From positions 32,001 through 96,000 of the forward strand of contig JABCSY010000001.1 of NCBI GenBank assembly GCA_018238625.1: a stretch of DNA of 64,000 nt, in the 5' to 3' direction. Below are positions 5,527 to 32,412 of the stretch, one piece after another. Position 1 is the first letter of the stretch. Every line of letters begins with the position of its first letter. The stretch is from Promethearchaeota archaeon (GTDB lineage: Archaea; Asgardarchaeota; Lokiarchaeia; Sigyniarchaeales; SOKP01). The notes under the pieces were generated by a model, which searched no databases, was not told the DNA's origin, and worked only from the letters and a program-made list of their open reading frames with translations. The translations under genes and the position numbers were made by a program.

Positions 5527-5599
5527 GTAATTTTTATTTAAATAAATAATTTTTAGAAAAATAGAAAAATTTTTTTTAACTGCATGCTATTTTTATATT

Positions 5600-5779: not shown

Positions 5780-5956
5780 ATTTTTGCTTATTTAAGAGGT
5801 TAAGATCCCACAAAATTCTAAAAACCATATATTGAAATAATAAACTAACTATCTATGGTCTTTTTTAAATGAGTAATATTAATAAAAGACAATTATATTT
5901 TTTCATACATAAAATTATAAAATTATTTTTTTATTAATTTAACAATAGAATATTTT

Positions 5957-7150: not shown

Positions 7151-7211
7151 ATTTTTGAATCGTAATTTAGCAGAAATAAAAAAAAATAGAGTAATATTGA
7201 TAAAGTTAATT

Positions 7212-8219: not shown

Positions 8220-8305
8220 TTAATATTTTTTTTTAATTGAGTATTTAATATTAAATTCTTATTTTAATATATTAAATTAAGTTTATATTAAAATTTTATA
8301 AAAAA

Positions 8306-14451: not shown

Positions 14452-15802
14452 TTTTTTTTCCCTCCTTTTTGTTATATAGAGCATTCTTAGCCGCATTGAT
14501 AAACTTTTCAATTGATTCGCGAGAATTCATTTCTGTCACACACACTAAAACTATGTTCTCCAAATTTGGAAAATACTTTGAGAGACGAAGGGGAGGGAGC
14601 AAGTTTAATTGCTTGCACTCATGAGTAAAAGCATCAACATCTGGACATTTTACAATAAATTCGTTGTAAGTTGGTTTTTTGTTTAAAATTTCGTAACCAG
14701 GAATTTCGGTTAGTTTGTTTTTAACATAATTAGCTTTTTGAAAGTTTTGGGTTGCGATTTCGCGCAATCCTGTTTTTCCTAAAGATATAATATATATTAA
14801 GGCAGATAATGAACATAATGCTTGGTTTGTGCATATATTTGAACTCGCTTTTTCTCTTCTTATATGTTGTTCACGGGCTTGTAACGTTAGTAAAAATCCC
14901 TCGCGTTCGCCGTTGATTTCCTTTGTTTTGCCAACCAACCTACCGGGCATTTTTCTCAAATATTTTTTCTTTGCTGCAAAAATACCTAATCCAGGACCGC
15001 CAAATGAAGGACTAATTCCAAAAGACTGTCCTTCTGCTACAAATATATCTACATCAGTTTCCCCTGGTGGTTTCAGAACACCTAAACAGGTGGGGTCGGT
15101 CATACATTGTATCAATAAGCAATTAGGAACTTTTTCTTTCACCTTTTTTGCTAACAACGATATATCTTCAATGTCTCCAAAGAAATTTGGACTCTGAAAT
15201 AAAACAGCTGCAATATCTTTGTTTAACTCGTCTATTAATTCATTTTCAGCGATAATTCTAAGATCGATTCCTTGTCCCCAACAATAAGTCTTGACAACTT
15301 CAGAATATTCGGGATGAATGCCTTCTAATAATAATAGACTGTTTTTCCTTGTTATTATAGTTGCCATAATAGCTGCTTCCGCAAGAGCAGTAGATCCATC
15401 GTACATACTCGCATTAGCAACATCCATCTGAGTTAGTCGAGAAATTACGCTTTGATATTCATAGATCGCTTGTAAAAACCCTTGACTAGCTTCTGCTTGA
15501 TAGGGGGTGTATGAAGTATAGAACTCTGTACGACTTATTACAAAATCAACTAAAGAAGGGATGTAATGAAAATAATAACCTGCTCCCAAAAAGGAATTAG
15601 AATAAACTTTGTTCTTTTGAGAAAGTTCTTTTAAGTTTTTCAGAACATCTGGTTCGGATAAGCCTAAAGGTAAATTTAAACTGTTAATAATTAAATCTTT
15701 AGGAATATCTTGAAATAATTCTTCTAAATTATTAACGCCAATAACTTTAAGCATTTCAGTAATAGCTTTATCGTCATGAGGAATAAAATCCAAATTAATC
15801 AA
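14444..15802 (-). CDS. gcvPA: Glycine dehydrogenase (decarboxylating) subunit 1
   Basis: FYTSYTPYQAEASQG, NASMYDG, QAREQHIRREKASSNICTNQAL. Confidence 0.95.
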   Translation of the reverse strand: MINLDFIPHDDKAITEMLKVIGVNNLEELFQDIPKDLIINSLNLPLGLSEPDVLKNLKELSQKNKVYSNSFLGAGYYFHYIPSLVDFVISRTEFYTSYTPYQAEASQGFLQAIYEYQSVISRLTQMDVANASMYDGSTALAEAAIMATIITRKNSLLLLEGIHPEYSEVVKTYCWGQGIDLRIIAENELIDELNKDIAAVLFQSPNFFGDIEDISLLAKKVKEKVPNCLLIQCMTDPTCLGVLKPPGETDVDIFVAEGQSFGISPSFGGPGLGIFAAKKKYLRKMPGRLVGKTKEINGEREGFLLTLQAREQHIRREKASSNICTNQALCSLSALIYIISLGKTGLREIATQNFQKANYVKNKLTEIPGYEILNKKPTYNEFIVKCPDVDAFTHECKQLNLLPPLRLSKYFPNLENIVLVCVTEMNSRESIEKFINAAKNALYNKKEGKKNE

Positions 15803-15852
15803 CTCATACTTCTAAAATTTTAAGAAATAAAATTAAAAATTGGAAAAAAAGT

Positions 15853-16248
15853 TTATTTATTCTCTTCTTCTACTATTTTTTTATAATCTTCAACGGATAA
15901 AAGTTTGTTAATTTCGCTACTATTTGAAAGCTTTATCTTCATCATCCAACCAGTCCCATAAGGGGAAGAATTAATTGATTCGGGGCTTTCTATTATAATA
16001 GCGTTAACTTCAACGATTTCTCCGGATAATGGCATCAGAATTTCTCCAACGGCCTTAACAGATTCAATTTCACCAGCACTACTTTCTTTTTCTAGCATTC
16101 TTCCTATTTCGGGTAATTCAACATAAACTATATCGCCTAATTGATGCTGAGCAAAATCGGTAATGCCTATAGTAGCCGTATCGCCTTCAATTCGCACCCA
16201 TTCATGTGACTTCATATATTTTAAATCATCAGGAAATTCGTATTCCAT
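15853..16248 (-). CDS. gcvH: Glycine cleavage system H protein
   Basis: HEWV, GITDFAQ, lipoyl-Lys motif IESVKA. Confidence 0.95.
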   Translation of the reverse strand: MEYEFPDDLKYMKSHEWVRIEGDTATIGITDFAQHQLGDIVYVELPEIGRMLEKESSAGEIESVKAVGEILMPLSGEIVEVNAIIIESPESINSSPYGTGWMMKIKLSNSSEINKLLSVEDYKKIVEEENK

Positions 16249-16276
16249 AATTTTTCACTTTTTCTTTGTTGTATAA

Positions 16277-17371
16277 TCACACATTTCTATAAAACGGTGT
16301 AGCAACTACTTTTCCTCTCAAGAACTTATTGCGAATTTCAATTTCAAATTCCGTTCCTACTTCGCTATATTGTTTTTCAACAAGGCCTAAACCAATTGTT
16401 TTCTTAAGTGTAGGTGAATATCCTCCTGAAGTAACGAATCCAATTTCATTACCATTTTTAAAAATTTTATAATGCTCTCTAATAATACCTCTATCCAACA
16501 AATTCAACCCAACAATAGTTAGATCTGTTCCTTCAGATTTTTGTTTTAATAAAGTTTCTTTTCCAATATAATCAATACCCTCTTTAGGTTTGACGAGCCA
16601 AAAAAGTCCTGCTTCAATAGGCGTGATTGAGTCGCTAATTTCGTGACCATATAACGAGTAGGTTGCTTCTAATCTCAACGAATCTCGCGCCCCTAAACCT
16701 GCTGCTGAGGCTCCAGTTTTAATTAAATCATTCCATATTTTCTCAGCATATTTATTATCAAATGAAATTTCAAATCCTCGTTCACCAGTATATCCGGTTC
16801 TAGCTATAAATATTGGAGCCCCGTTTAACATAGTGTGAGCAAAATAAAACCTATTTATCGAAGATAAATCAACATCCACTAATGGTTGGAGATATTCGTC
16901 GGATTTTGGACCTTGAAACGCTAAACGACATCTTTTTGAGGATAAATTAGTAATTTTAACATCTTTACTTCCAATATGCTCGTTTAACCATTGAAAATCT
17001 TTTTCGACATTGCCAGCGTTAACGATCATTCTAAATCGCTCAGGTTCTTCCTCGTAATAAACAAGATCGTCAACAACAGTCCCATTTTCATAACACATAC
17101 ATGAATATTGTCCTTTTGTGGGTTCTAGTAGCTTTAAATCGTTAATCATTACATATTGAAGAAAGGATATTACATCTTTCCCTTCTAACAGGAATTCCCC
17201 CATATGTGAAACATCAAATATACCCGCTTTATTGCGTACCGCTTCGTGTTCTTTTATAATGCTTTCGTACTGCACTGGCATACTAAAACCAGCAAAGTCA
17301 ACCATCCTTGCTCCTAAATTCACGTGAATATTATAAAATGGAGTCTTTTTCAGTTCTTGAATCAAATCCAC
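16277..17371 (-). CDS. gcvT: Glycine cleavage system T protein (aminomethyltransferase)
   Basis: FDVSHMG, RTGYTGERGFE, GLGARDSLRLEA. Confidence 0.95.
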   Translation of the reverse strand: MDLIQELKKTPFYNIHVNLGARMVDFAGFSMPVQYESIIKEHEAVRNKAGIFDVSHMGEFLLEGKDVISFLQYVMINDLKLLEPTKGQYSCMCYENGTVVDDLVYYEEEPERFRMIVNAGNVEKDFQWLNEHIGSKDVKITNLSSKRCRLAFQGPKSDEYLQPLVDVDLSSINRFYFAHTMLNGAPIFIARTGYTGERGFEISFDNKYAEKIWNDLIKTGASAAGLGARDSLRLEATYSLYGHEISDSITPIEAGLFWLVKPKEGIDYIGKETLLKQKSEGTDLTIVGLNLLDRGIIREHYKIFKNGNEIGFVTSGGYSPTLKKTIGLGLVEKQYSEVGTEFEIEIRNKFLRGKVVATPFYRNV

Positions 17372-18252: not shown

Positions 18253-19206
18253 ATAAAAATACTCCTATTTGGCCCTGGTGGTGCGGGTAAAACGTCATTA
18301 ATGCGGACTACTTGTTTAGGTTATAATTTCATGAAAGTACTTAATCTGAAACCTACAAAAGGAGTCTCGAGGGAAAACTTTATATTTAGGGGAATAATGG
18401 AACTTTCCATCTGGGATTTAGGCGGTCAGGAACTTTATATGGAAAGATATTTCTCGGAAAAACAGCGAGAGCTTGTGTTTTCTGAAGTAACAGCTGCAGT
18501 TTTCATGGTTGATTCGGCAGCAGAAGAACCAAAACTAAAAGATACCTTTGGCAAATTCTTGAAATACCTTTTCGAATTTAGTCCTGAAGTAGGAAAAGTA
18601 TACGTCTTATTAAATAAAACTGATCTTCAAGAATCAAAAGAAGATGACATTTATGAACTATTAATTAAAGATCTTACAGACGATTTAAAAAGCAAAATTG
18701 CTTTTACACCTGTATCAGTAAAAGAGGGAAGTGCTCAACATCGATTGATCGAAATACTCGATTATAAAATTCAAGAGAACACATTAGCTTTACAAAGACT
18801 TGGGAAAATACGCCATTTGTTAGACCAATTGAAGATCAATACGCTTTCAGAATTTCTTTTGTTTAACCAACCAGATGGTTTATTAATAGCATCCACAATA
18901 GGAAAATTTGAAAGTCCAAATCTCCAATTCCTCCGTTTTGAAATAGGAAGCCTTGATTCAAATATATATCAAATCTATACAAAGATTATGGAACTTTCAG
19001 ATTCTTCGATTTCTCCTTTAGAATTATCGACAGTTATATATGAGAGCGAACATAACTACATCTTAGTGAAGGAAGTTAGCAATGGATCGGTACTGATGGT
19101 TGTTACTAAAGAGAAATCCATTAGTATTTTTAATACTGTGATGGACGACTTAAATGGCGAAAATTTCCAAAATTTGAAAAAATTCCTTAGTAGGGACGAT
19201 TTTTAA
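18253..19206 (+). CDS. Rag/Gtr-like small GTPase with C-terminal roadblock-like domain; probable ATA start
   Basis: In-frame upstream of the track's ATG 18301 lies (I)KILLFGPGGAGKTSL (G1); also PTKG (G2), WDLGGQ (G3), NKTD (G4); C-terminal LLFNQPDGLLIAST roadblock-like pattern. Confidence 0.85.
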   Translation: MKILLFGPGGAGKTSLMRTTCLGYNFMKVLNLKPTKGVSRENFIFRGIMELSIWDLGGQELYMERYFSEKQRELVFSEVTAAVFMVDSAAEEPKLKDTFGKFLKYLFEFSPEVGKVYVLLNKTDLQESKEDDIYELLIKDLTDDLKSKIAFTPVSVKEGSAQHRLIEILDYKIQENTLALQRLGKIRHLLDQLKINTLSEFLLFNQPDGLLIASTIGKFESPNLQFLRFEIGSLDSNIYQIYTKIMELSDSSISPLELSTVIYESEHNYILVKEVSNGSVLMVVTKEKSISIFNTVMDDLNGENFQNLKKFLSRDDF

Positions 19207-20227
19207 CTGATTCTAAATCAATTTTATTAGAAAATAATGTTCTATTAGAATGTTCTTCAATTATAGAAAACAAGTAATTATTTGTATTTTTGATTACAGG
19301 CGTTATAAACAATAATTCTTCTTCTGGAAGGCATTTTTCAACTTTTTCGTTTAATACCTCTTTTTCAAAAAACTCTTTAATGTAAGTAATTCGGATGATG
19401 AGATCGTTGAATTCCTTTTTGCTGTTATTCTTTACTAAAACTTCTATTTCCTGAAAATTGTTAATAATATTTATGTTTGTTATTTTAAATTGATCTTTTA
19501 TTCCTAATTTTTGTTGAACAACTCTATCGTAATCAAATAATCGAATTTTAGAAAACGATTCATTTTGAGCGTCCATAACAATGTGGTCAATATCAATTCC
19601 TTTAAATGTTAAATAAGAAATTGCTTTTTGCAATTTGAAAGAAGTCGCATCAGTTTGTTTAATTACCGATGAAAAATGTTCCTCACAAGTAAGGTTAATT
19701 ATTGCTTTTATTTCTTCTTTTATTTGGTCTCCTTTTTTTATTACATTGATTAATTTTTCCGTTTTAATAACTTCCAGTTTCGCAATTTCTGACTCTATTA
19801 CCTGATAAAGCGTATTTTCAAATTGATCGATTATTTTTTTCGTTAATAAATTTATTAATTCGCCCCCAAAAACATCTAAATCTGTTGGCAACACAAGTAT
19901 CAACACAACAATTTCACCCCTTTTTTGGAAAGACCCTGCTCTTCTTTTGACCCTTTTAGATTCAACAATAAATTTCTTCGCAAAATACATATTATTACTG
20001 TATTCTAAATCAATTCGGTTAATTGTAGTTTTATCTTTAAGCTCTAAAAACCAAATTGGATGGTATCTTATAAGATGCATTTTTCCTGAGTCATCATCTA
20101 GCGCGTTTTCTGGACAAATAAGAAGTGGGACATGGCCTATAGTCTCATCAAAATAAAACAAAAGAGTCTCACATAATTCCTTAAATGGACAATCTGTATT
20201 GGCGTTATTTAAGCGATTTTCTTCCAA
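19187..20227 (-). CDS. Hypothetical protein with possible N-terminal longin/uDENN-like domain and C-terminal beta-sandwich
   Basis: LLFYFDETIGHVPLLICP resembles the FD-x3-G opening hairpin of longin/uDENN modules; fold call is inference. Confidence 0.5.
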   Translation of the reverse strand: MEENRLNNANTDCPFKELCETLLFYFDETIGHVPLLICPENALDDDSGKMHLIRYHPIWFLELKDKTTINRIDLEYSNNMYFAKKFIVESKRVKRRAGSFQKRGEIVVLILVLPTDLDVFGGELINLLTKKIIDQFENTLYQVIESEIAKLEVIKTEKLINVIKKGDQIKEEIKAIINLTCEEHFSSVIKQTDATSFKLQKAISYLTFKGIDIDHIVMDAQNESFSKIRLFDYDRVVQQKLGIKDQFKITNINIINNFQEIEVLVKNNSKKEFNDLIIRITYIKEFFEKEVLNEKVEKCLPEEELLFITPVIKNTNNYLFSIIEEHSNRTLFSNKIDLESVKNRPY

Positions 20228-20285: not shown

Positions 20286-21590
20286 TTAATGAGAAGCGCA
20301 CGATATGCAAGGATCAAATGCTCTTATCATTATTTGAGTTTTTTCTTTAACAGACTCGATATCTTCTTTTTCATATAGCTTCTTAGCATATTCAGTGATC
20401 ATTTTGTTAATAATAGGCAAATTTATTTCGGTTGCAATGAAAAGCTTTACTTGATCAACGGTTTTAGCTTTATTTAAGTGATAATGATGCATTAGTATAC
20501 CTCTTGGTGCTTCGATAACCCCTATCCCATTTGATTTTTTTATTGAGTTTAGTTGTTTAAGTTGTGTTTTACTTTTTAGTGAAGTAGTATTTAATATTTC
20601 AATACTTTTTTGAATTTCGCAATAGCTTTCAATTAATTGTAAAAAGTTTAAAAATAATAAATTGCTTTTCCATTTTTTTCCAAAATTACCCATATATTCG
20701 GATATTTTATCTATCCCATAATTTTGAGTTAACCTATAGCGCGCTATTGGTCCTGTTAAAATCTTATTTTTCGAATTCGACTTAAAAGTAATCCCATAAA
20801 GATTAGAGTCTTTATCAAAATATTTTGAATAATTTTTCGCTTGAAAATCGTCGTAAGTTGTTTCACTTCGTTTAATTCTAAGGTCTCCTTCATACCTATC
20901 AAACCCCATATTATTCTTTAAGCCGAAATATATAGGGTTAGAAAGATTAAATTCTGTAGGAGGTTCAAAAGCAGAAAATAAATCTATAAAATTTTCAATT
21001 AAGGTTTCTATGTAGTAAATTCCCTTTTTTAGATATTTCTCCGTAAAAATTAAACTTTTTCGAGTAGGATTGAATATTAATCCTCCCGGAATCGGAGTAA
21101 TTGGATGTAGTGCCCTTCCTCCTATTAATTTGTTTATTTCTGAACCAATTTTTATTAAATTAAATACATTTGTCGCTAAATGAGGATTGTAATTAATTAA
21201 ATTATAAGAATCGTTATCAATAGTTTTAATTTTAAATATTTTTAATAAATCTGGAAAGGACTGTAAAAAATAATGCATAATGTGCGATTTTATTAATTCT
21301 CCAGACAATAATACCTTTCTAAGCAAAATTGATTGGTGTGATGGTTCTATTCCGTATATACTTTCTATTGCTTTGCAACTTGCAATTGTTTGAGATGCGG
21401 AGCATTGTCCACAAATTCTAGATGCAATTTTTGGAATATCTAATAGCTTTTTACCTACTAAAATATTTTCAAATCCTCTAAATACTGAAAAACTCAATTC
21501 AGTTTGATAAATTTCATCGTTTTTTAAATAAATGTTTAAGTTTCCACAACCTTCAACCCTTGTGCATGCTTCTACAACTTTATCCATCAA
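20286..21590 (-). CDS. [NiFe]-hydrogenase large subunit, group 3-like, no C-terminal extension
   Basis: TRVEG, L1 RICGQC, EAPRG, L2 RAFDPCISCASH immediately followed by TAA. Confidence 0.9.
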   Translation of the reverse strand: MMDKVVEACTRVEGCGNLNIYLKNDEIYQTELSFSVFRGFENILVGKKLLDIPKIASRICGQCSASQTIASCKAIESIYGIEPSHQSILLRKVLLSGELIKSHIMHYFLQSFPDLLKIFKIKTIDNDSYNLINYNPHLATNVFNLIKIGSEINKLIGGRALHPITPIPGGLIFNPTRKSLIFTEKYLKKGIYYIETLIENFIDLFSAFEPPTEFNLSNPIYFGLKNNMGFDRYEGDLRIKRSETTYDDFQAKNYSKYFDKDSNLYGITFKSNSKNKILTGPIARYRLTQNYGIDKISEYMGNFGKKWKSNLLFLNFLQLIESYCEIQKSIEILNTTSLKSKTQLKQLNSIKKSNGIGVIEAPRGILMHHYHLNKAKTVDQVKLFIATEINLPIINKMITEYAKKLYEKEDIESVKEKTQIMIRAFDPCISCASH

Positions 21591-22351
21591 TCCTTCCCTC
21601 CTACATGTGATTTTGAGAACCTATAATAAATCCCTTTATATTTTCTTAGATCTTTAGAAAGATTAAAAAGGCTTAAGAAATTGATTAAATTCGAGGTAAA
21701 CCCCTTTGAAACAGGACCTAAACATCCTTCACAGGGTAATCCTTGATTTATGCAGAGATGGTCGCAGCCATCCCGAGTAACAGGGCCTAAACATAAAATC
21801 CCATCGTTCAAAAAACACGATAAATTTTCTTCCGGAAAACGAATTTCATCGTTTCTTGGAACTATCTTTTCTATTGTTAATGGTAAATCTAATTTTGCTT
21901 GGTTGTTTAAAGGACAAGTAGAACACATATTTTTTGAGCTTAGCTCGAATTTTTTGTTCTCAACTAGCCTTAATAAACAATTTCCTAAAAGTATAGATGG
22001 AGGCGGGCATCCAGGTATAATACCATCAACTTCTACAAACTTTGAAATAGGATACGCTTCTTTTTTATTTGAGAGACTAAGAATTCCCCCAAACGCTGAG
22101 CATGTACCTAATGCATATAGTTTTTTTGCATTTTTTCGTATTTCTTGAAGATACTCGATTTGATTCTTTTCTGATACGCACCCCTCTACTAGCGCTATAT
22201 CGCATTCTTTAATCTCTAAATTATCAGATATAAATGGAAAATATTCGATTTTCGTTCTTTCAAGAAATTGTGGAAATATATCTAGCGATATTAATGCTGA
22301 TATACATCCAGTACAAGAAGTTAAAGATGTAATTAAAAATTTAAGCCTCAC
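21587..22351 (-). CDS. [NiFe]-hydrogenase small subunit (MvhG/HydD-like)
   Basis: SCTGC, GTCSAFGG, PGCPP, CSTC, CLGPVTRDGC, PCEGCLGP. Confidence 0.9.
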   Translation of the reverse strand: MRLKFLITSLTSCTGCISALISLDIFPQFLERTKIEYFPFISDNLEIKECDIALVEGCVSEKNQIEYLQEIRKNAKKLYALGTCSAFGGILSLSNKKEAYPISKFVEVDGIIPGCPPPSILLGNCLLRLVENKKFELSSKNMCSTCPLNNQAKLDLPLTIEKIVPRNDEIRFPEENLSCFLNDGILCLGPVTRDGCDHLCINQGLPCEGCLGPVSKGFTSNLINFLSLFNLSKDLRKYKGIYYRFSKSHVGGKD

Positions 22352-24887
22352 TTTTAATCTCCTCCTTTAGTAAATTATAGAATTTATTAGAGATTTCAGC
22401 AAATAGCTGTCCTTCTACTCCGTTTAAACTCATCACTATTATCCGTCTGCTTAACTTTGGTCCTAGAATCTTTTTTAAAAGCCCAACTCTTTTTTTTAAT
22501 TTTTCAATCCCGTCAATATATCTACAAGAATCCTTTCTGCAACCGATAATCATAACTCCGTCAAACCCCATTTCAAGAGATTTAACAATGAATTCAGTAT
22601 CAATACGGCCAGTACAAGGAACAGAGATTATAAAAACATTAGGTTGATATAACAATTTCTTTAATCCTGCATTGTCAGCGGCAGCGTAACCGCACGATTG
22701 GCAACAAAAAGCGATGATTTTTGGTTTTTTATTGAATTTTGAGAAAATTTCGATCGTTTTTAAAATCTTTTCTGATGTATTTATATTCATTTCGATGGCA
22801 TTAGTAGGACAAACACTAACACACATACCACAAGCTTTACATTTAAACTTATCAACAGTAATTTTTTCGGAGTTTATGCTTATTGCATTGTAAGGGCAAG
22901 AAATAACGCAGAGGTTACACAATCCACATTTGTCTTCATTAATCTCTATTCCAGTATATTCTGTTATTAAATAATCGTTTGAAAGAAGTGATATTACTTT
23001 TAACGCTATGTTATTGGTGGTTGCTATAGTCGAGTGATAATTTAATGGGCCAAATATTGTTCCAACACCATAAATACCAGAAGCTAAAGTTTCTTCACTC
23101 ATAAAACCATAATCATTTAAAGTGAAGTCCATAATCTTTCTTAGAGATTTCAAATCCTTATTTGGAATTAATTTAAGGTTTAAAACAATCAAATCACTTT
23201 GAAACTCAATAGAATCCGCAATTACATAGTTAATATTCTCTTTTGTCTCAATTAATACTTTATTAGCGTAAAGAAATCTCGGATGAGTAGATTTTAGTAT
23301 TATCTCGTCTTTTTCTTTTAGTTTACTTAAATCGTAAAAAACATTAACTTCACAATCAGGGCTCTTTACTTTAATAACATCTATATACTTTAGGGTTAAA
23401 ATATCCGAATATTCACATAGATAGTTTGAAGATCCAACTTCTTGAATAATTGATATTGTTTTTACTGGTTTCCCATCAGATAATTTTACTATCTTTCCAT
23501 CAGTTAGGCCATCTGAACATAAAATTCGTTCAAATTCTGCTGAAGTTATAATATTATTTTGTGGATTATAATTATATTCTTTTAAATTTGAAGAAAGATC
23601 TGAACCAATAGCTATAACTTTAGCGCCTACTTTAATTCTTAATTCCTTAGGCTTTTCTCTTAAATTAATTGCTTTATTTGCACAAGCACGTTCACATATT
23701 CCACATTCAAGGCAGCTTTTAATATCTTCATCGTCAATAACAGGAACATAAGGATAACAATATTGAAAAGGAAAGTGAATTATTTTTCTATGCGTTAAAC
23801 CAAATTCATATAGATTAACTTTCTCTCGAGCACACACATCCACACATTGCTTACAACCTGTACATTTTGTCTCATCAACATAGCGAGGATTTTTAATTAA
23901 ACTTATAGTAAAATTGCCAACTTCTCCCGATACGCTAATTATTTCCGTATTTGTCAAGATCTCAATATTATTTTCTTTCACAATTTCCCCAATTAATTCG
24001 GAGATTAAACAAGTAGAGCAATCTCCCATATTTGAAATCTTTTGCCATCTTGCTACTTTTCCTCCTAATGTAGGAGACTTTTCAATTAGGTAACACTTAA
24101 TACCTGCCCTTGATAAGTTTAACGCTATATTCATACCAGCAATCCCTCCTCCCAGAATTGCGCAACTTTTTTCAACTTCAACTCTTTTTATCTTAATTGG
24201 TTTTTGAAGACTTACTCGATTAACTGAGGCTTCAATAAGTAATTGCGCTTTTTTCAAAGTTAAAAGGCTATCAATGTGCTTTTTACTTGAATAATGTACC
24301 CAACAACATTGTTCTCTTATATTTGCAATCTCAATATTAGCATTATCAATTATATTATGAAAAAGACGTTCAAATACATGTTGATGTGTTTTAGGAGAAC
24401 AGGCAGCGATAACAATTTTATTTACGAAGTTATCAGTAATCCAATTATTAATTTTATCTTGGTTTTTTTCTTGACATAAATTATCAAGAATTTTAACTGA
24501 GACTACATTATTTATTTTACTTGCATAGTTTTCTAAGGAATTAATGTTAAGGACATTTGAAACTTCTGTATTACAATTACAGATGATAACACCTATTCTG
24601 TTTATTTCGCTTCCTTTTGATTTTAAATAGTCTATTTCCTCTCCAGATAAAATTCTTTTATTTAATCCTAATATCCTTAAAACTCTTTTACCGTCATCTG
24701 TTAAATAATATGATTTTTTGTCTTTACTTACTAAATTATTAAGCTTTTTCAAATGAAAATTTAATTGCCCTGTTTGTTCTATACCTAACTTCATCATTAA
24801 TTCAGTATATGGAATAAAACCTTCTTCTTCGAGAATGTATAAGAGTTTTCTTCTGATTGGATGAGCTAAAATTGAATAAATATCCAT
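22341..24887 (-). CDS. ArsR-type wHTH - HdrA-like flavo/FeS protein - MvhD fusion
   Basis: N-terminal LAHPIRRKLL..QLNFHLKKL..YYLTDDG (wHTH); HdrA motifs AACSP, NIREQCCWVH, GGGIAG, DCSTC and ferredoxin motifs; C-terminal MvhD FCCQSC, PCTGR, GC-x4-CRY. Confidence 0.88.
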   Translation of the reverse strand: MDIYSILAHPIRRKLLYILEEEGFIPYTELMMKLGIEQTGQLNFHLKKLNNLVSKDKKSYYLTDDGKRVLRILGLNKRILSGEEIDYLKSKGSEINRIGVIICNCNTEVSNVLNINSLENYASKINNVVSVKILDNLCQEKNQDKINNWITDNFVNKIVIAACSPKTHQHVFERLFHNIIDNANIEIANIREQCCWVHYSSKKHIDSLLTLKKAQLLIEASVNRVSLQKPIKIKRVEVEKSCAILGGGIAGMNIALNLSRAGIKCYLIEKSPTLGGKVARWQKISNMGDCSTCLISELIGEIVKENNIEILTNTEIISVSGEVGNFTISLIKNPRYVDETKCTGCKQCVDVCAREKVNLYEFGLTHRKIIHFPFQYCYPYVPVIDDEDIKSCLECGICERACANKAINLREKPKELRIKVGAKVIAIGSDLSSNLKEYNYNPQNNIITSAEFERILCSDGLTDGKIVKLSDGKPVKTISIIQEVGSSNYLCEYSDILTLKYIDVIKVKSPDCEVNVFYDLSKLKEKDEIILKSTHPRFLYANKVLIETKENINYVIADSIEFQSDLIVLNLKLIPNKDLKSLRKIMDFTLNDYGFMSEETLASGIYGVGTIFGPLNYHSTIATTNNIALKVISLLSNDYLITEYTGIEINEDKCGLCNLCVISCPYNAISINSEKITVDKFKCKACGMCVSVCPTNAIEMNINTSEKILKTIEIFSKFNKKPKIIAFCCQSCGYAAADNAGLKKLLYQPNVFIISVPCTGRIDTEFIVKSLEMGFDGVMIIGCRKDSCRYIDGIEKLKKRVGLLKKILGPKLSRRIIVMSLNGVEGQLFAEISNKFYNLLKEEIKSEA

Positions 24888-25083
24888 TTCTGAGCTTTCC
24901 TATTGATTTTTTATTTTAAATTTATTTTGTTAAAAAAAAAAATTTGACAAATTATTTTTTCTTCATGACAATATATGTTGTAAAAATATATAAATGTGTT
25001 AGAAAATGATCATATGATCCGCGAATTTCATTAATAAAAATGACGATTTTCGATTAACTAAAAAATTTGTTTAGAAAATAATT

Positions 25084-25140
25084 TTGATAATATTTCTTAT
25101 CAATATGTTAAAAAATTTTCTTGTCAAATTCTTTTTATTT
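25084..25140 (+). promoter_or_regulatory. Operator-like inverted repeat plus half-site upstream of a probable TATA box
   Basis: TTGATAA-N6-TTATCAA (25084-25103, perfect palindrome), TTGTCAA at 25121-25127, then ATTCTTTTTATT. Confidence 0.65.
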
Positions 25141-25209
25141 TAGGCTTATGACAATTTAATTAGGTAAGTATTTTTTTAAAAAGTTGAAATAAAAGAGGTG
25201 TATTATTAT

Positions 25210-25827
25210 ATGGAAGTATTGGAATTGAAACCAGTAAAAAATAAAAAAATAATAGTGTATATGTCCTCAAAAGAAAATGGTAGGTATTTTCAAAATCAAG
25301 ATACATCAAGATTAACTGATTTTCTCAAAAAGAAAGATGTTAACTTTGTAACCGTAGATTTTCAAGTAGATATGAAAGTGTTTAAGAAAACACCTTTTGC
25401 ACAAACATTAGATAAACTTGGAATACCATATATTCAAGTAGATATTCCAGATTATGCAATGGGATATCTTTACGAAGAAATTGTCGAAAAACAAGAACTT
25501 CAAAATGAATTATTTGAAGAATACGACAATATGAGCGATAAAGAATCTTTCAAAGGGCAAAGTCTAAAAAATTGGATTGACATGCTAAGCGAAGAAATTC
25601 AAGAAAGAGAGATTTTTTTAAGCTTGAAACTAAGACCACAGTGGATCGTAAAAAAAATGCTAGATTTTGCAAATCGTTTTGAAAATGAAGTGGTTTCTTT
25701 TGTACATTTTGTTCAAGAGGATATTTGCGAGGATATTTGCCCTCAAGTCGTTGCAAATTTAAGAGATTTGGGAGTAAAAGTAATTTCCTATACTAAAAAA
25801 CACACAATTCAAAATATTATATTTTAA
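25210..25827 (+). CDS. Hypothetical alpha/beta protein with helical-hairpin insert; paralogue of the next gene
   Basis: GAGGTG SD then ATG 25210; N-terminus MEVLELKP shared with the next ORF. Confidence 0.8.
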   Translation: MEVLELKPVKNKKIIVYMSSKENGRYFQNQDTSRLTDFLKKKDVNFVTVDFQVDMKVFKKTPFAQTLDKLGIPYIQVDIPDYAMGYLYEEIVEKQELQNELFEEYDNMSDKESFKGQSLKNWIDMLSEEIQEREIFLSLKLRPQWIVKKMLDFANRFENEVVSFVHFVQEDICEDICPQVVANLRDLGVKVISYTKKHTIQNIIF

Positions 25828-25850
25828 TTAAAAAAAAGGAGTTAAAAAAA

Positions 25851-26582
25851 ATGCCAGAAGTATTAGAATTAAAGCCATTAAAAGATAAGCATTTAAAGCT
25901 TATCATGGTAGAAAGTGAGTTTCCAATAGATTGGTGGTTCGAAGTTCCTAAAGAAAAAAAGGAAGATTTGCTATGGTCTTTACATCTTATTAGCAAAGAA
26001 TATCTTCAGCTCATCGATGGTTTAATAGACAAATATTCACCTGATTTTGCTTTAGAAGAAAAACCTAATTTTTGGGATGACCCGTTAAACCCTAACGATC
26101 CTCTAAAAACATTACTCAAAAAGAAAGGAATTCGATTTAAACATGCTGATATCTCTGAAAATGCGGAATTTTATCTTTCTGCTGCTTTGGATGAACACAG
26201 AAGTATGCTACAAACACTTGAAAAACGAATCAAAGAGATAATTACAGAAAATGGTGGTGTTCCTTCCGAAGATGAACTTTTCCAACAATTAGTTTTATGG
26301 AAGGACTATCTCAAAAATGATTATGACTCACAAGAAGATGAAATACGATATAAAGTTAGAGAAGCTTGGATGATGATGAATACTCTAAACCTTGCAAAGG
26401 AGATTAAAGGGAAAAAATTAAAGGGGTTATTTATTTGCGATTTAAGGCACTTTGAAGGCTTAGATAAGTTAGCAAACGATTTAGGCATCGATACAGAGCA
26501 GATTAAAATTAAAAGAACTATTAAAACCGCAGAAATCGAAAAAGAGTATGAAGAAGAGGTAGAAGTTGAAATATCTAAATAA
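25851..26582 (+). CDS. Hypothetical protein, possible TraB/TIKI/ChaN-superfamily fold
   Basis: AGGAG SD; PDFALEE and REAWM..LFICDLRHFEGL resemble TraB-type motifs (inference). Confidence 0.6.
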   Translation: MPEVLELKPLKDKHLKLIMVESEFPIDWWFEVPKEKKEDLLWSLHLISKEYLQLIDGLIDKYSPDFALEEKPNFWDDPLNPNDPLKTLLKKKGIRFKHADISENAEFYLSAALDEHRSMLQTLEKRIKEIITENGGVPSEDELFQQLVLWKDYLKNDYDSQEDEIRYKVREAWMMMNTLNLAKEIKGKKLKGLFICDLRHFEGLDKLANDLGIDTEQIKIKRTIKTAEIEKEYEEEVEVEISK

Positions 26583-26636
26583 TTTTTTTTTTAGTTATAA
26601 TTTCTATGAATTTTATAGTTTAAATAACGATGTGAG

Positions 26637-27650
26637 ATGAGAAAAATTACTCAAAATGATGAAATTGGAAATAAAATTGAAAGTATTCTCGGTAAAAAAT
26701 CAATAATAGAATTGACGCCAATTAAAATAAAGAAAAAGGATAGTTCAGATAAGATTTGCTATTTTTTTGACACGGATGATAACGCTTCTCCGTTTGACAT
26801 AAACATGGCTTACGACGCTGGTTTTGATATCGTTGTGCCAATAAGTAAAATGACGGCGGATCAAGTTCCTAAACTTGTCCAGGATGCTATATTTTCACGT
26901 AAACCTAAAGCACGGACAACATTTTTTATTGGGGGATCTAATGTAAAGGAGGGGGAAAAAATCGCTAGGAAAGTCATTGAATCCTTAGTACCTCCATTTG
27001 AATGTCCCGTAATAATAGATCCAAGGGGTTCTCATACTACTGCTTCTGCTGTTGTAGCTAAGACTTTATACGACGCTAAAAATATCCATAAAATTAGTGA
27101 TTTAAAAGGAGAAAAAGTCGTAATCTATGGGGCAGGCCCAGTTGCCAGAATTGCTGCTATATTAGCAGCAAAAGAAGGGTTGAATGTATTTTTAGTTGAA
27201 ACTTGGGATAAATCGAACGAAGAATTTATAAAAAATCTTGCTAAAGAAGTAACCGAAGAAGCTGGCGAGGGTGCAACCGAGATTAAAGGGGTGTTTGCGC
27301 CTGAAAAAGAACAAAGATATGATGTTGCTAAAGATGCGCTTATTATCTGGTCTTTAGCTGCTGCTGGTGTTGAAATTTTATCAAGCAATCTAATGGAAAG
27401 ATTAGAAGGTAAGAAAATTGTAGTAGATATCAATTTAGTTCCCCCTTATGGAATTGAAGGAATAAGACCAAAACACGATAATAAAGAAATATATTCAGGA
27501 ATTTTTGGAATCGGAGCATTAGCATTAGGTCGATTAAAAGCAAATTCGGAGGGAGAAATATTGAAAGAAGCAACAAAAACTAAAGGTACAAAGGTATTTG
27601 ATTATAGCTATGCGTTCGAAGTTGCTAAAAAATTGTTATCTAAGATTTAA
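26637..27650 (+). CDS. NAD(P)-dependent methylene-H4MPT/H4F dehydrogenase (MtdA/MtdB type) with N-terminal extension
   Basis: FDTDDNASPFDINMAYDAG, LVQDAIFSR, FIGG, DPRGSHTTA, DINLVPPYGIEG. Confidence 0.88.
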   Translation: MRKITQNDEIGNKIESILGKKSIIELTPIKIKKKDSSDKICYFFDTDDNASPFDINMAYDAGFDIVVPISKMTADQVPKLVQDAIFSRKPKARTTFFIGGSNVKEGEKIARKVIESLVPPFECPVIIDPRGSHTTASAVVAKTLYDAKNIHKISDLKGEKVVIYGAGPVARIAAILAAKEGLNVFLVETWDKSNEEFIKNLAKEVTEEAGEGATEIKGVFAPEKEQRYDVAKDALIIWSLAAAGVEILSSNLMERLEGKKIVVDINLVPPYGIEGIRPKHDNKEIYSGIFGIGALALGRLKANSEGEILKEATKTKGTKVFDYSYAFEVAKKLLSKI

Positions 27651-27712
27651 ATTCTTAAATTTTTATTTTTTTTTTTTATTGATTTATTAAATAGTTTTTA
27701 AAGGGGAATAAA

Positions 27713-29986
27713 ATGGTTGAGAATATTGATGGGATTGTAAGTAAAGTAAGGATAAAAGACGCATTCAAAGAAGACGCAGGGAGAGGTATTGTAAGAGTAG
27801 ACCCAGAAATAGTTTCAAATTTAAAACTTAAGGTAGGTGATGTAATTAAAATCATCCATCCTGTAGTAAATAAAAAAACTGTTGCTTCTTTGTCAACAGG
27901 AAAAAATGAAGATAAAGGAAAAAAGATTATTCGTATGGATCCCTCCCTAAGACGAAATTTAGGAGCCTCAATTGATGACCTTGTTGAAATAAAAAAAATC
28001 AGTGTAGATATTGCCAATACAATAACCTTTGCTGGGTTAGATAATTCATTAATCCCACGAGATCCTCAAGCTTTAGCTAGAAAACTAGAAAATAGGGCAA
28101 TTACAAAAGGAGATAGCTTAAGTTTCTACGCTATGGCTCGCAGAATTGACCTTGTAATCGTTGATTACACTCCTAATTCTGAAGCGGTTAAAATTCAACT
28201 TGATACAAAAATATTATTTAGTGAAAAATCAACTCAAGAAATTAGCGAAATAAAAAAAAAAGAAATAACATATGAAGGAATTAGTGATTTAGAACAGAGA
28301 TTACAAGAGATTCAGGGAAAAATAACATACGAAGATATAGGTGGTTTAGAGGATTCGATTCAAAAGATTAGAGAAATGATTGAACTACCAATTAGACATC
28401 CTGAACTTTTTGAAAGAATTGGAATTGACCCTCCAAAAGGAGTTCTGCTCCATGGGGCTCCAGGTACAGGTAAAACATTACTAGCAAAAGCAGTAGCTTA
28501 TGAGACTGATGCCTATTTTATAAATATTAGTGGCCCTGAAATAATGAGTAAATTTTTTGGTCAAAGTGAAGAAAATCTTCGAAATAGATTTGAAGAAGCA
28601 AAAAATAACGCCCCCTCTATTATTTTTCTCGATGAATTAGATTCAATTGCTCATAAAAGGGATGAAAATAAAGGTCAAGTAGAATCAAGAGTTGTGGCTC
28701 AACTTTTATCTCTTATGGATGGTTTAGAAGGGAGAGGTGAAGTCATAGTCATTGGTGCAACGAATAAAATAAATAATATTGATATAGCACTAAGAAGACC
28801 AGGTCGTTTTGACAGAGAAATTGAAATTAAAGTACCTGATACTAAAGGCCGCTATGAAGTTTTATTGATCCATACTCGAGGAATGCCTTTAAATGAGGAA
28901 ATTGATCTAAATCTTATTGCTGAAAAAACACATGGTTTTGTCGGTGCAGATATAAAATCTTTATGCAAAGAGGCAGCTATGCTTGCGATTAGGGAGATAC
29001 TACCTAATATTGACTTAGATAAACCTATACCGGAAGAAATTTTAAACAAATTAATAATCAAAATGACACATTTTATTACAGCATTAAATAGTATTGAGCC
29101 ATCTGCATTAAGAGAAGTGTTCGTTACACAGCCAACTGAGACTTGGGAGGATATTGGCGGATTAGAAGATGCAAAGCAGCAATTAAGAGAAATAGTTGAA
29201 TGGCCATTTAAGTACTCGGGGTTCTATAAACATATGAAATCAAGACCCCCTAATGGAATTTTAATATTTGGTCTTCCTGGGACCGGTAAGACATTAATGG
29301 CTAAAGCGCTTGCCCATGAAACCGAAGTAAATTTTATTTCAGTAAAGGGTCCTGAATTTTTATCAAAATGGGTTGGTGAAAGTGCTAAAGCTGTAAGAGA
29401 AGTATTTCGAAAAGCAAGAACGGCTGCTCCTTGTATTATATTTTTTGACGAAATTGATGCTATCGCAGCAAGAAGGTCAACATCCTCAAGTTCAAGGGTT
29501 ATTGAACAAGTTGTAGCGCAATTTTTAACAGAAATGGATGGTTTAGAAGAATTAAAAGATGTTATATTAATAGCGGCTACAAATAGACCCGATATTCTCG
29601 ATCCTGCCATTCTGCGTTCAGGAAGATTCGGAAGGCATATAGAAGTTCCATTACCAAATAAAATATCTCGAATTAAGATATTTAAAATACACCTCGCTAA
29701 TCGTCCAATAGATAATAATATTGATATTGAAAAACTGGCAGAAAGGTTAGAAGGAAATACAGGAGCGGATATAAAAGCAATCTGCGAAGAAGCTACACTT
29801 TTAGCCATTCGCAGAAGTGTCATTAACAATAATATAGATACACAAAATCCTGATTCATATAAAAAGGTTAAAATTTCTCAAGCTGATTTTGAAAAAGCAA
29901 TAGAAAAAGTACAATTAGGCGCTAATAAAGCTAAAAGGGCTTATAAAGAAACTATTAAAGAAACTGTCGAAGATATTTACAGATAA
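27713..29986 (+). CDS. cdc48: Cdc48/VCP-family AAA+ ATPase
   Basis: N-domain [10 protein letters not shown]; two AAA modules ([28 protein letters not shown]) with SRH; C-terminal IYR (HbYX). Confidence 0.95.
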
Positions 29987-30018
29987 AAAAAATTAATTAA
30001 ACTTGTCAAGGATATTTT

Positions 30019-30074
30019 TTGAAAAATAAAATTATCAATTTATCAAAAATTTTTCTTATCAAATTCTTTAAATT
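30019..30074 (+). promoter_or_regulatory. Second copy of the operator-like element
   Basis: TTGAAAA-N6-TTATCAA (30019-30038), TTATCAA at 30056-30062, then ATTCTTTAAATT; same spacing as the 25084 element. Confidence 0.65.
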
Positions 30075-30139
30075 TGTCGCTTAAGAGTATTTAATTAGAA
30101 TGTATAAAAAAATTAAATAAAAATTAAAAGGTGTATATA

Positions 30140-30391
30140 ATGGTGATAAGTTTGGTTAATGAAGTAAATAGTTTTGAAGAAAAAATCGTTTTATCTTCTA
30201 AAAGTGAATTTATATCTGAATTTGCTCGAGGTTACTTTGAAGCGGAGATAATTGAAAAAGAAACACAATTAAATGAATATTTAAATGCGTATAATGCTAT
30301 TCGTGAGAAAGACTCATTTAATAAACAATACATAGAAACTTTAATATATTTATTAAAATCTGAAATAAAGGGAATCCAAAAATTGTTTTGA
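30140..30391 (+). CDS. Small helical protein homologous to the internal hairpin of the 25210 protein
   Basis: AGGTG SD then ATG 30140; ungapped similarity to the 25210 protein (A.GY...EI.EK....NE....Y......K.SF..Q). Confidence 0.75.
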   Translation: MVISLVNEVNSFEEKIVLSSKSEFISEFARGYFEAEIIEKETQLNEYLNAYNAIREKDSFNKQYIETLIYLLKSEIKGIQKLF

Positions 30392-30412
30392 AAGGATTCC
30401 CTTAATTTTTTT
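30368..30412 (+). terminator. Stem-loop followed by T-tract
   Basis: AAGGGAATCC (30368-77) / GGATTCCCTT (30394-403), perfect 10-bp stem with 16-nt loop, then AATTTTTTT. Confidence 0.55.
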
Positions 30413-30487
30413 AGTATTATTGTTTATTCTAAGAAATTAAATTAAAAAAATAAGAATTTTTAAAAAAATATATTTTAATAGTAATAA

Positions 30488-31336
30488 TTAAGCTTCTTTT
30501 TCGTGCAGCTTTCTCTTGGTTAAAAGATGTTGCTTAGAATGATGAGGTGTTCTCAATACTGTATCGTTAGATTTTTCTATTTCTCTGGCTTGTGTGCATA
30601 ATTCAGCAGCTGTTTTCATCATTTCGTGAGATGCAGCTAATAAAGGCATATATTCGGCTCTATCTTTTAAAACAAAGCACGCTCTTCCCGTAATCTTAGA
30701 AACTGAAGCTGCTAATTCAAAAGCTGCAATAGCTTTAGCTTGGGCGTAAGGATTTGAAAAGCCTGCTGCCTCTGTAGCGTTAGTGGCTTTAATCTCGATT
30801 TGAGGTAAAGTAGGGGCCTTCCCTTCTAACATATCCATTATAACTTTATTTAATTCGTTAGTTATTATATTAAAAGCACCAGTAATCGCAAGAACTTTTA
30901 ATAGATCTGCATTGAAACAACTCATCTCGACAGTGTCTAGAAATGGACGCCTTGCTCCTATCATAGAGTCACAGCCTACTATTATATATCCCATGTTTTT
31001 TTCTTTAAATTCTTCGATAGCCTTTTTTGCTGGAGCATCAGAGATTATAATCGTAGGAATATTTCCTGCTAATTCTCTTGCTGCTTTCGGTCCTTTTAAC
31101 GCTGCATTTGGGCTGGACATTAAGATTAATTCCGGTTCAAATTCTAATAATTTTTTCATAGTTTCTACGCATTCCTCTGGAGGGTTCATCTTCGCTCCCG
31201 AGGTAACTTCTCGCACAACTATATTCTTAGATTCTGCCCTTTCATCCAGTAAAAAAGCAAGTAATAACGAAGAACCAATTGTTCCATTCTTAAGTATCCC
31301 AATTTTTAAAACTTTTTCTTCACTCATTTTTGACAA
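30488..31336 (-). CDS. mtd: F420-dependent methylene-H4MPT dehydrogenase
   Basis: LLDERA, SGAKM, SPNAALKGP, DSMIGARRPFLD-VEM, AREIEKSNDTVLRTPH. Confidence 0.93.
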   Translation of the reverse strand: MSKMSEEKVLKIGILKNGTIGSSLLLAFLLDERAESKNIVVREVTSGAKMNPPEECVETMKKLLEFEPELILMSSPNAALKGPKAARELAGNIPTIIISDAPAKKAIEEFKEKNMGYIIVGCDSMIGARRPFLDTVEMSCFNADLLKVLAITGAFNIITNELNKVIMDMLEGKAPTLPQIEIKATNATEAAGFSNPYAQAKAIAAFELAASVSKITGRACFVLKDRAEYMPLLAASHEMMKTAAELCTQAREIEKSNDTVLRTPHHSKQHLLTKRKLHEKEA

Positions 31337-31500
31337 CTTTAAACTTATTAAAAATCATAAAGATTCTATTATGAATTTCTTAAATTGATAATTAATTAAA
31401 ATTTTTAGCTTTTTTTCTTAAAAATTTTATATATTATTGCGCTCTATTAAAATTTATAATATTAGGATTTAAATTACATAATAGAAATGTTGATTAAAAA

Positions 31501-32412
31501 ATGGAAATAAATGGAGTAGAAATTGAAGATACTTTCTGTGAAGCGTTTGGAGCTGTTTTTACTAGAATTTTAGTAACTACCATAAATGAAAAATGGGCGA
31601 AAATTGTTGCTCAAATCGCAACTGGTTATGGAACATCAACGATCCATTGCGATTCAGAAGCCGGTATAGATGTATTTGTTTCTGCTGAAAAAACACCCGA
31701 TAACCGACCTGGAGTTGTATTGATGTTTTTTAAGACTAAAAAAGATAAAATGGACGGTGTTTTATTGAATAGAATGGGTCAATGTGTATTAACATGCCCA
31801 ACAACTGCTTGTTTTGACGCATTTAATGGTTCTCTTGTTCCAGAGAAAGAATTTGAAATAAAAACAGGATATAAGCTAAAATTTTTCGGTGATAAATTTG
31901 AAGAAAAAATAGAAGGAGTTTATCCTTTTGAAGCCTGGAAAATTCCCGTTATGGACGGTGAATTTATCGTTCAAAGCACATTTAAAGTTGGAAAAGGAAT
32001 CGCGGGAGGAAATTTCTTAATTTATGGTGAAACTCAAGAGGCAGCCTTAGAAGCTGCAGAAAAGGCAATAGATGCTATAAAAGATTTAGAAAATATAATA
32101 GCTCCTTTTCCAGGTGGGATCGCACGGTCTGGTTCAAAAGTAGGCTCACAATATAGTTTTTTAAATGCTTCAACAAACGATCCTCTTTGTCCAACCCTAC
32201 GTGGAAAAACTGAGAATTCTTTACTCGGAGAGAAAGATAATTACGTGTATGAAGTAATCCTTGACGGTGCTAATGAAGAAGTTATAAAAGAAGCTTTGAA
32301 GTTAGGGATTAAAGCGGCTGTTCAAGTCCCGGGTGTTTCAAAAATCAGTGCAGGGAATTATGGCGGTAAGCTAGGAAAATTTCAATACAGATTGTATGAT
32401 ATTTTGGCTTAA
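31501..32412 (+). CDS. ftr: Formylmethanofuran:H4MPT formyltransferase
   Basis: MEINGVEIEDTFCEAF, TPDNRPG, GQCVLTCPTT, GIAGGN, SGSKVGS, ISAGNYGGKLG. Confidence 0.96.
   Translation: MEINGVEIEDTFCEAFGAVFTRILVTTINEKWAKIVAQIATGYGTSTIHCDSEAGIDVFVSAEKTPDNRPGVVLMFFKTKKDKMDGVLLNRMGQCVLTCPTTACFDAFNGSLVPEKEFEIKTGYKLKFFGDKFEEKIEGVYPFEAWKIPVMDGEFIVQSTFKVGKGIAGGNFLIYGETQEAALEAAEKAIDAIKDLENIIAPFPGGIARSGSKVGSQYSFLNASTNDPLCPTLRGKTENSLLGEKDNYVYEVILDGANEEVIKEALKLGIKAAVQVPGVSKISAGNYGGKLGKFQYRLYDILA

Follow-up and report, generated by a model that had tools for sequence, protein, structure and literature searches.

Why should the electron-transfer subunit of an [NiFe] hydrogenase begin with a domain of the kind that binds DNA? 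The question is raised by a locus of a Promethearchaeota archaeon, which we analysed within a stretch of 64,000 nucleotides (nt; assembly GCA_018238625.1, contig JABCSY010000001.1, positions 32,001 to 96,000), called the window below. On the minus strand of the locus, a gene for a fusion of a winged helix-turn-helix (wHTH) domain, an HdrA part and an MvhD domain (the fusion; its gene is called hdrA here) is followed by the genes for the small and the large subunit of an [NiFe] hydrogenase. Divergent from them, on the plus strand, lie orf209, orf243 and a gene for an MtdA-like protein, together referred to as the cassette, and then a Cdc48 gene and the small gene orf86 (Table 1). A preliminary description of this DNA had reported the three overlapping minus-strand genes, and both their layout and their domains could be confirmed: the small-subunit gene overlaps the fusion gene by 11 nt, the large-subunit gene overlaps the small-subunit gene by 4 nt, and the three genes are translationally coupled. 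Enzyme and putative DNA-binding domain are thus found in one chain with a candidate operator on its own promoter, the combination that characterises a trigger enzyme. The answer we favour, at a probability of roughly 55%, is that the hydrogenase complex would also regulate genes in a manner resembling PutA, repressing its own operon and the cassette.

The composition of the fusion could be read in some detail. A DUF7347 wHTH was detected at residues 2-72 (E 2e-10), residues 97-842 are spanned by the NCBIfam HdrA2 profile (profile positions 1-770 of 777, E 1.5e-166), and the MvhD/FlpD domain lies within that stretch at residues 724-841 (PF02662, E 2.3e-33). In the PDB, residues 93-713 match a methanogen HdrA (8rvu_a, 4e-106) and residues 721-841 match MvhD chains (5odc_D at 1.2e-20). 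A profile built from 13 orthologues matches PDB entry 1Y0U, a putative ArsR repressor, at 1.2e-5, and the orthologue N-termini contain DUF7347 in all 13 cases and HTH_20 and HTH_24 in 11. The AlphaFold2 (AF2) model, with a mean predicted local distance difference test (pLDDT) of 84.6, shows a classical winged helix with helices at residues 2-6, 10-22, 27-34 and 39-48, the last being the recognition helix, a wing at 53-62 and a C-terminal helix at 64-80; a linker with pLDDT <50 (residues 83-93) then leads into the N-terminal domain of HdrA. In orthologue alignments, G40, N43, H45 and L46 of the recognition helix are invariant, K48 is invariant in one alignment and nearly so in another, and the recognition-helix motif was found in 103 of 117 family members. 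Judged by sequence and predicted fold, the N-terminus is an ArsR-type wHTH with its recognition helix. Standalone relatives of this domain are common (972 matches among representative proteins, mostly of 100-500 amino acids (aa)); full-text searches of the literature found no mention of DUF7347.

The fusion is widespread among Asgard archaea, and to judge by the labels of its homologues the source belongs with the Loki-type members of that group. A search with its residues 1-100 returned 134 proteins at E<=1e-3; among the best 120 of these, most are 816-863 aa long and six are shorter (474-751 aa, three of them labelled partial), DUF7347 and HdrA are present in all and MvhD in the full-length ones, and the first 100 residues show 54-96% identity across the family. 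At the genome level, the first 150 residues find a counterpart at E<=1e-25 in 119 of 400 Asgard genomes; most of these matches lie in open reading frames (ORFs) of ~850 aa, with a few in shorter ones at contig ends, and there is usually one per genome. The fusion occurs in 90 of the 134 genomes of the family to which this archaeon belongs (f1), and also in f29, f30, f31, f12, f19, f16 and f7. Moreover, the small- and large-subunit genes follow it in all 20 loci fetched. The genomes compared are kin, so these counts are not independent, yet the recurrence of the arrangement removes the concern that the fusion might be an artefact of a single assembly.

A palindrome, TGAYAA-N6-TTRTCA (18 bp), emerged when the DNA upstream of hdrA was read at 21 orthologous loci. 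In 17 of them, one or more sites with <=1 mismatch lie within 420 nt upstream of the hdrA start (29 sites in total); spacers other than N6 gave 0-5 sites, and shuffled sequences gave a mean of 0.4 loci and a maximum of 3. The four loci with no such palindrome within this distance are L045, L046, L055 and L056. Across the loci the half-sites are held while the bases of the spacer vary, and on the hdrA promoter a TATA-like octamer ends 1-3 nt ahead of a site (<=2 mismatches) in 12 of 21 loci. Archaeal repressors are known to use a site just past the TATA box, an arrangement that blocks polymerase recruitment. The preliminary description had noticed the same palindromic element on both plus-strand promoters, and this holds, the copy upstream of orf209 (O2) being perfect and the copy upstream of orf86 (O3) carrying one mismatch. 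To these a third copy could be added on the hdrA promoter (O1), which starts 3 nt past the TATA box. The promoters of orf209 and orf86, whose start codons are likely ATG 25210 and ATG 30140, are paralogous and align over ~80 nt; the plus-strand promoter element has a 19-nt core that occurs twice exactly, and 7 matches were found at <=3 mismatches against 0.84 expected.

In the 4.29-Mb genome the perfect palindrome occurs four times. Two copies, on contigs C150 and C176, lie inside ORFs and were set aside as chance; the two intergenic copies both precede orf209/orf243/MtdA-like cassettes, one in the window and one on contig C162. Sites with <=1 mismatch number 117 genome-wide, and since this equals the background obtained with other spacers (86-113), a large regulon is not indicated. 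By its distribution the candidate operator is private to the fusion/cassette system. A further one-mismatch copy in the window (39581-39598), which may be due to chance, falls in the last part of ORF 38767-39621, with an unnamed ORF of 545 aa starting ~170 nt beyond it.

What, then, would the operator control besides the fusion itself? The third gene of the cassette encodes a protein that matches PDB entries 6TLK, 6TGE and 1LU9 at 2e-28 to 3e-28 (residues 37-333 against chain positions 2-287) and PF09176 at 5.5e-26, with both the Mpt_N and the Rossmann domain covered. By these matches it is a full-length homologue of MtdA, the NADP-dependent methylene-tetrahydromethanopterin dehydrogenase. The products of orf209 and orf243 are paralogous (hhalign probability 99.5%) and belong to a family of 162 proteins, all unnamed and all with Asgard labels except one labelled Nanopelagicaceae (P0305); no credible Pfam match was obtained at E<=1 for orf209, orf243, orf86 or orf346. 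The model of orf243 has an alpha/beta fold, not a DNA-binding one. Foldseek found no match for it in the PDB at E<=1e-3, a PDB profile search returned nothing below E 0.07, and VIA-align gave middling scores for the CbiL N-domain (8.8), ChaN (8.8), HopBA1 (8.4) and EreC (7.7). A ChaN/erythromycin-esterase-like (EreA-like) fold can be suggested only tentatively from this model, the scores concerned (Z 8.8 and 7.7) being within the noise range.

Contig C162 carries a second cassette, with the perfect palindrome ~100 nt ahead of its first gene. That gene encodes an orf209 paralogue (33% identity, 9e-37), and the next encodes a natural fusion of 556 aa with an orf243 part (43%, 2e-53) and an MtdA-like part (57%, 4e-116). 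The existence of this fusion implies that orf243 and the MtdA-like protein work together, and the site on C162 is an independent test within the same genome that favours the link between operator and cassette. Across the intergenic region with the operator, and in divergent orientation to the C162 cassette, lie genes for a 294-aa DHODB_Fe-S_bind protein and a 914-aa fusion with Fer4, FrhB, Fer4_20 and Pyr_redox_2 domains (Nfn/GltD-like) at 4639-8254(+) of C162 (L060); judged by position and domains, this pair could possibly be further members of the regulon.

The distribution of the parts across genomes points in the same direction. In 110 of the 400 Asgard genomes the fusion occurs together with the orf243 family; 9 have only the fusion, 26 only the cassette family and 255 neither, and four of the nine fusion-only genomes belong to f16, which also lacks the operator. 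Of the genomes compared for the second-cassette promoter, 8 of 10 that have the fusion show the operator there, versus 1 of 8 that lack it. The fusion, the orthologous large subunit and the cassette are all missing from five near-complete genomes of the family, four of which keep only a large-subunit paralogue of 26-27% identity. Because the loss of the fusion goes together with that of large subunit and cassette, the whole module seems to come and go as a unit. As to synteny, of 20 loci 12 have an MtdA-like gene beside the fusion and 14 have one or more of the cassette genes there. The cassette of L057 (f12) lies behind the large subunit on the same strand, and in L049 orf86 directly precedes orf209.

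The Cdc48 gene, which had been proposed as a further target of the fusion, did not survive this comparison. It is found near the cassette in 8 of 20 loci, which all belong to f1, and in one of these it is 3.9 kb off; in the window, a T-tract follows the stop codon of the MtdA-like gene and precedes Cdc48. Because of the T-tract and the restriction of the neighbourhood to f1, the cassette is better read as a three-gene unit with Cdc48 as a bystander, which is probably not part of the system. Accordingly, the four plus-strand genes described earlier are present, and three genes plus Cdc48 on its own are likelier than a four-gene operon. Of the proposed control over an NAD(P)-linked one-carbon (C1) enzyme and Cdc48, the C1 part retains comparative support in the rare conserved palindrome and in the co-occurrence, and the Cdc48 part falls away. 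On the other side of the locus, 9 of 20 loci have orf346 behind the large-subunit gene; in the window a 58-nt gap without a T-tract separates the two, and orf346 is possibly co-transcribed with the hydrogenase genes. A gene for a Gtr1/RagA-like small GTPase (301 aa) is convergent with orf346 (window 18301-20227).

As for RNA, metatranscriptome contigs of two libraries (X16 and X19; one sample, one study), 90-99% alike, fall on hdrA and on orf209 through Cdc48; this is weak evidence of transcription, as contigs of this kind reveal neither where transcription starts nor how strong it is, and DNA can be present in such libraries. No contig of these libraries spans the region 24513-25013. A scan for sigma-70 promoters and terminators gave 35 promoter-like sites against 27.6 expected; the sigma-70 model does not apply to archaea and the scan was not used.

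Table 1. Features of the locus, with positions in the window
Feature	Position	Strand	Basis or remark
orf346	19187..20227	-	function unassigned; no Pfam family; candidate for co-transcription with hydrogenase genes
[NiFe] hydrogenase large subunit	20286..21590	-	434 aa; NCBIfam ShyA 2.7e-51, VhuA 4.3e-45
[NiFe] hydrogenase small subunit	21587..22351	-	254 aa; PF01058 1.5e-19, VhuG-like 3.6e-33
wHTH-HdrA-MvhD fusion gene	22341..24887	-	848 aa; ORF, Pfam/NCBIfam domains, PDB matches
MvhD domain, fusion residues 721-841	22365..22727	-	PF02662; 5odc_D
HdrA part, fusion residues 97-713	22749..24599	-	alignments
Low-confidence linker, fusion residues 83-93	24609..24641	-	pLDDT <50, AF2 model
ArsR-type wHTH, fusion residues 1-80	24648..24887	-	DUF7347, HTH_20, PDB 1Y0U, AF2
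Candidate operator O1, hdrA promoter	24966..24983	.	one mismatch to TGAYAA-N6-TTRTCA
TATA-like box of hdrA promoter, TTTATATA	24987..24994	-	sequence read
Promoter block common to orf209 and orf86	25082..25164	+	alignment A1, columns 43-125
Candidate operator O2, TGATAATATTTCTTATCA, upstream of orf209	25085..25102	.	perfect; one of 4 perfect genome copies
orf209	25210..25827	+	paralogue of orf243; no Pfam family
orf243	25851..26582	+	unnamed family, paralogue of orf209; no Pfam family
MtdA-like gene	26637..27650	+	337 aa; PDB matches, PF09176
T-tract after cassette	27656..27680	+	sequence read; presumed terminator
Cdc48 AAA ATPase	27713..29986	+	TIGR01243, 909 bits
Candidate operator O3, upstream of orf86	30020..30037	.	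one mismatch
orf86	30140..30391	+	small helical protein; promoter paralogous to orf209 promoter

How might such a complex act on its promoters? The wHTH would sit on the HdrA-MvhD part through a short tether of ~10-15 residues. HdrA dimerises in the solved methanogen complexes, and if the fusion did likewise, two wHTH domains side by side could bind the 18-bp palindrome. A protein bound at O1, so close behind the TATA box, would block the recruitment of RNA polymerase, which would amount to autorepression, and the promoters of the window's cassette, of orf86 and of the second cassette on C162 would be its other targets. In methanogen complexes, the N-terminal domain of HdrA is part of a mobile arm that swings during turnover, according to the part of PMC13580544 available to us. 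Since the wHTH is tethered to precisely this domain, a link between redox state and operator is plausible: the reduction state set by hydrogen and ferredoxin could shift operator occupancy through the mobile arm, and an NAD(P)-linked C1 dehydrogenase module would thereby be expressed according to hydrogen or redox status.

A bolder form of this proposal, which we regard as tentative and hold at well below even odds, is that the hydrogenase-HdrA complex turns hydrogen or the redox state of ferredoxin directly into transcription. The pair of wHTH domains on the mobile arm would then clamp the operator according to the reduction state, hydrogen partial pressure would, in these near archaeal kin of the eukaryotes, set the expression of both the hydrogenase and the NAD(P)-linked C1-oxidation module without a kinase or second messenger, and the losses in HdrA and in the large subunit of Lokiarchaeial lineages, described below, would mark a drift towards a dedicated sensor.

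The features of the hydrogenase bear on whether the complex is still an enzyme. The large subunit matches PDB chains 7t2r_D (4.9e-49) and MvhA 5odc_F (1.8e-44), and because its best family and PDB matches are ShyA, VhuA and these two chains, we place it in group 3. By best matches it would be a cytoplasmic group-3-type [NiFe] hydrogenase and not one of group 2b. It ends in ...DPCISCASH without a C-terminal extension, its L1 motif reads RVEGCG (EGC) and its L2 motif RICGQCSASQ, which lacks the usual His; the four Ni-Fe cysteines are kept, in RICGQC and DPCISC. The chain stops at the last His in all ten f1 large subunits examined; those of deeper lineages have tails of 7-13 residues. The HdrA part of the fusion keeps the flavin adenine dinucleotide (FAD) motif, the N-terminal cluster cysteines, both ferredoxin domains (16 invariant cysteines) and the C290/C293 pair, and the MvhD cysteines are kept as well. 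The motif CxG...CSxxCC, which by elimination we take to be that of HA4, is absent from the window protein and found in none of 117 full-length fusion proteins. It is present in an unfused HdrA paralogue on contig C48 and in the deep-branching fusions L055, L056, L057 and P0267. As these deep-branching fusions keep the motif, the gain of the wHTH came ahead of the loss of the cluster. It is HA4 that hands the high-potential electron on toward HdrB, as described in the accessible portion of PMC13580544.

The window is as poor in partners as the preliminary description had stated: among the 55 ORFs scanned, no CCG/HdrB, Hyp or HycI family was found, and thus no hdrBC or maturation genes. Elsewhere the genome has 43 CCG-domain matches, HypD, one HycI-like peptidase and unfused HdrA paralogues. 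Contig C95 (L058, 5441-9772) encodes a second hydrogenase, a split Vhu-type [NiFeSe] enzyme with a small and a large subunit of 438 aa each. The large subunit stops before the C-terminal CxxC motif, and a small ORF at 6936-7109(-) encodes a VhuU-like protein of 57 aa that reads ...DCULSCAAH... when TGA is taken as selenocysteine; HdrC-like and HdrB-like genes come after it. A division of labour with this second hydrogenase, as its gene content suggests, would suit a specialised regulatory role of the window's module and is no proof of one. Among the unfused HdrA paralogues, those on contigs C119, C32 and C26 (L003-L005) have 2-4 in-frame TGA codons each and, to judge from these codons, may be selenoproteins; contigs C144, C138 and C68 carry very long HdrA-type fusions, in ORFs of 1007-1163 aa.

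These features could be taken to mean, in line with the preliminary description, that the complex has no metabolic role at all and that the hydrogenase only reports hydrogen to a transcription factor by way of its flavin and iron-sulphur chain; such a system would be the one-component equivalent of the regulatory hydrogenases. The HA4-type motif has gone from the close family and is kept in the deeper fusions and the unfused paralogue, the f1 large subunits examined lack a C-terminal extension, and L1 and L2 are unusual in this genome. The large subunit HoxC of a hydrogen sensor likewise lacks the extension. In addition, the separate Vhu-type hydrogenase beside HdrC and HdrB, together with the unfused HdrA paralogues, could take care of metabolism, and the module is dispensable, as seen in the five near-complete genomes without it. 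We nevertheless consider a pure sensor unlikely, as the Ni-Fe cysteines, the FAD site, the N-terminal cluster, the ferredoxin domains and the MvhD cysteines together form a full wire to a ferredoxin-type partner, which goes beyond the needs of a sensor; furthermore, the fusion is older than the loss of HA4, and the best matches lie in group 3 and not in group 2b. Quite unlikely, in our view, is a redox-blind form of autoregulation, in which the wHTH would bind the operator in any redox state and only set the dosage of complex and cassette, for instance through unassembled HdrA repressing its own gene. The position of the operator directly past the TATA box of the fusion's promoter in 12 of 21 loci would suit it, and no redox switch is visible in the sequence; the tether to the N-terminal domain of HdrA, a turnover-dependent mobile arm in methanogens (PMC13580544, same portion), argues against it, as does the reach to unlinked cassette promoters, which exceeds what dosage control of the complex would need.

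We also weighed whether the wHTH might not bind DNA at all and instead serve docking or dimerisation, with some other factor reading the palindrome. Winged helices are also capable of contacting proteins, the f16 fusions lack the palindrome, and the operator is correlated with both cassette and fusion. This is nonetheless improbable, given that the recognition helix is among the most conserved parts of the protein, that the N-terminal 100 residues are as well conserved as noted above among the matches listed, that Pfam detects no DNA-binding domain in the conserved gene set besides that of the fusion, and that the orf243 model is not of a DNA-binding fold. We therefore return to the trigger enzyme, while noting that several observations weigh against it. 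The kinship of the compared genomes makes the counts overstate their independence. The lack of the HA4 motif and the unusual L1 and L2 motifs, as read from the sequences, suit a sensor no less than an enzyme. The f16 fusions have neither a palindrome within 420 nt nor a cassette, and L045 and L046 are also without a site. On the promoters of orf209 and of the C162 cassette, the place of the palindrome relative to the true TATA box or transcription start appears uncertain, and the binder of the palindrome could be another protein.

Comparison with known systems helps to define what is new. In the MvhAGD-HdrABC complexes of methanogens and the HdrA2-type HdrA-MvhD fusions, HdrA, MvhD and both hydrogenase subunits are homologous to those of the window over their full length, and the FAD site, the N-terminal cluster, both ferredoxin domains and C290/C293 are kept here; unlike them, the window system has an additional N-terminal wHTH, no HA4-type motif, no hdrBC at the locus, a large subunit without C-terminal extension and an MtdA-like cassette as associated genes. 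PutA of E. coli and Salmonella, a trifunctional flavoenzyme and autorepressor, similarly combines a flavoenzyme and an N-terminal DNA-binding domain in one polypeptide with operators on its own regulon. Its switch is the association with the membrane upon flavin reduction. PutA differs in having a ribbon-helix-helix instead of an ArsR-type wHTH and in that a multi-subunit hydrogenase complex is involved here; the repressor role of PutA is described in the section of PMC5293562 that was accessible.

The group 2b hydrogenases HoxBC/HupUV, with their HoxJ/HoxA relay, resemble our system in that a hydrogenase is tied to gene control and in the large subunit without extension, but no kinase or response regulator is found at the locus (and no kinase family among the 55 ORFs scanned), the best matches are to group 3, and the DNA-binding domain is inside the electron-transfer subunit. 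To our knowledge, known hydrogen sensors act through kinases. The ArsR/SmtB repressors share the wHTH, by sequence and predicted fold, and a palindromic candidate operator; their domain is here fused to a redox protein of ~750 aa. Searches of full texts, supplements aside, found no paper on a DNA-binding domain on HdrA or on a hydrogenase subunit, and the HdrA fusions listed in the portion of PMC11237513 available include none with an HTH. The earlier statement that no such system has been characterised agrees with these searches, which found no description of one.

The surroundings of the locus contain further C1 genes, namely Mch, glycine cleavage T/H/P1/P2, F420-type Mtd and Ftr (window 7212-8219, 13015-17371 and 30488-32412), and the window also encodes a homologue of presenilin-family intramembrane proteases (1672-2736(-); PF01080, 4.7e-21). 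DNA near-identical to window 21500-31400 is present in metagenomes from marine sediment, cold seeps and other sediments: at least half of the sampled words of this region were found in ten metagenome runs, one of which may be the source of the DNA itself.

On a practical matter, the routine annotation of this gene set as 'MvhADG-HdrABC' is misleading, as the cluster feeding HdrBC is gone in this lineage. Furthermore, the analysis defines a small and testable regulon, in which the operon of the fusion is joined by the MtdA-like C1 cassettes and by two Asgard-only families of proteins. Current models of syntrophy in Asgard archaea, and of the origin of eukaryotes, give a central place to hydrogen exchange, and if our reading is true, a DNA-binding electron-transfer subunit would represent a new way to couple hydrogen or redox status to gene expression.

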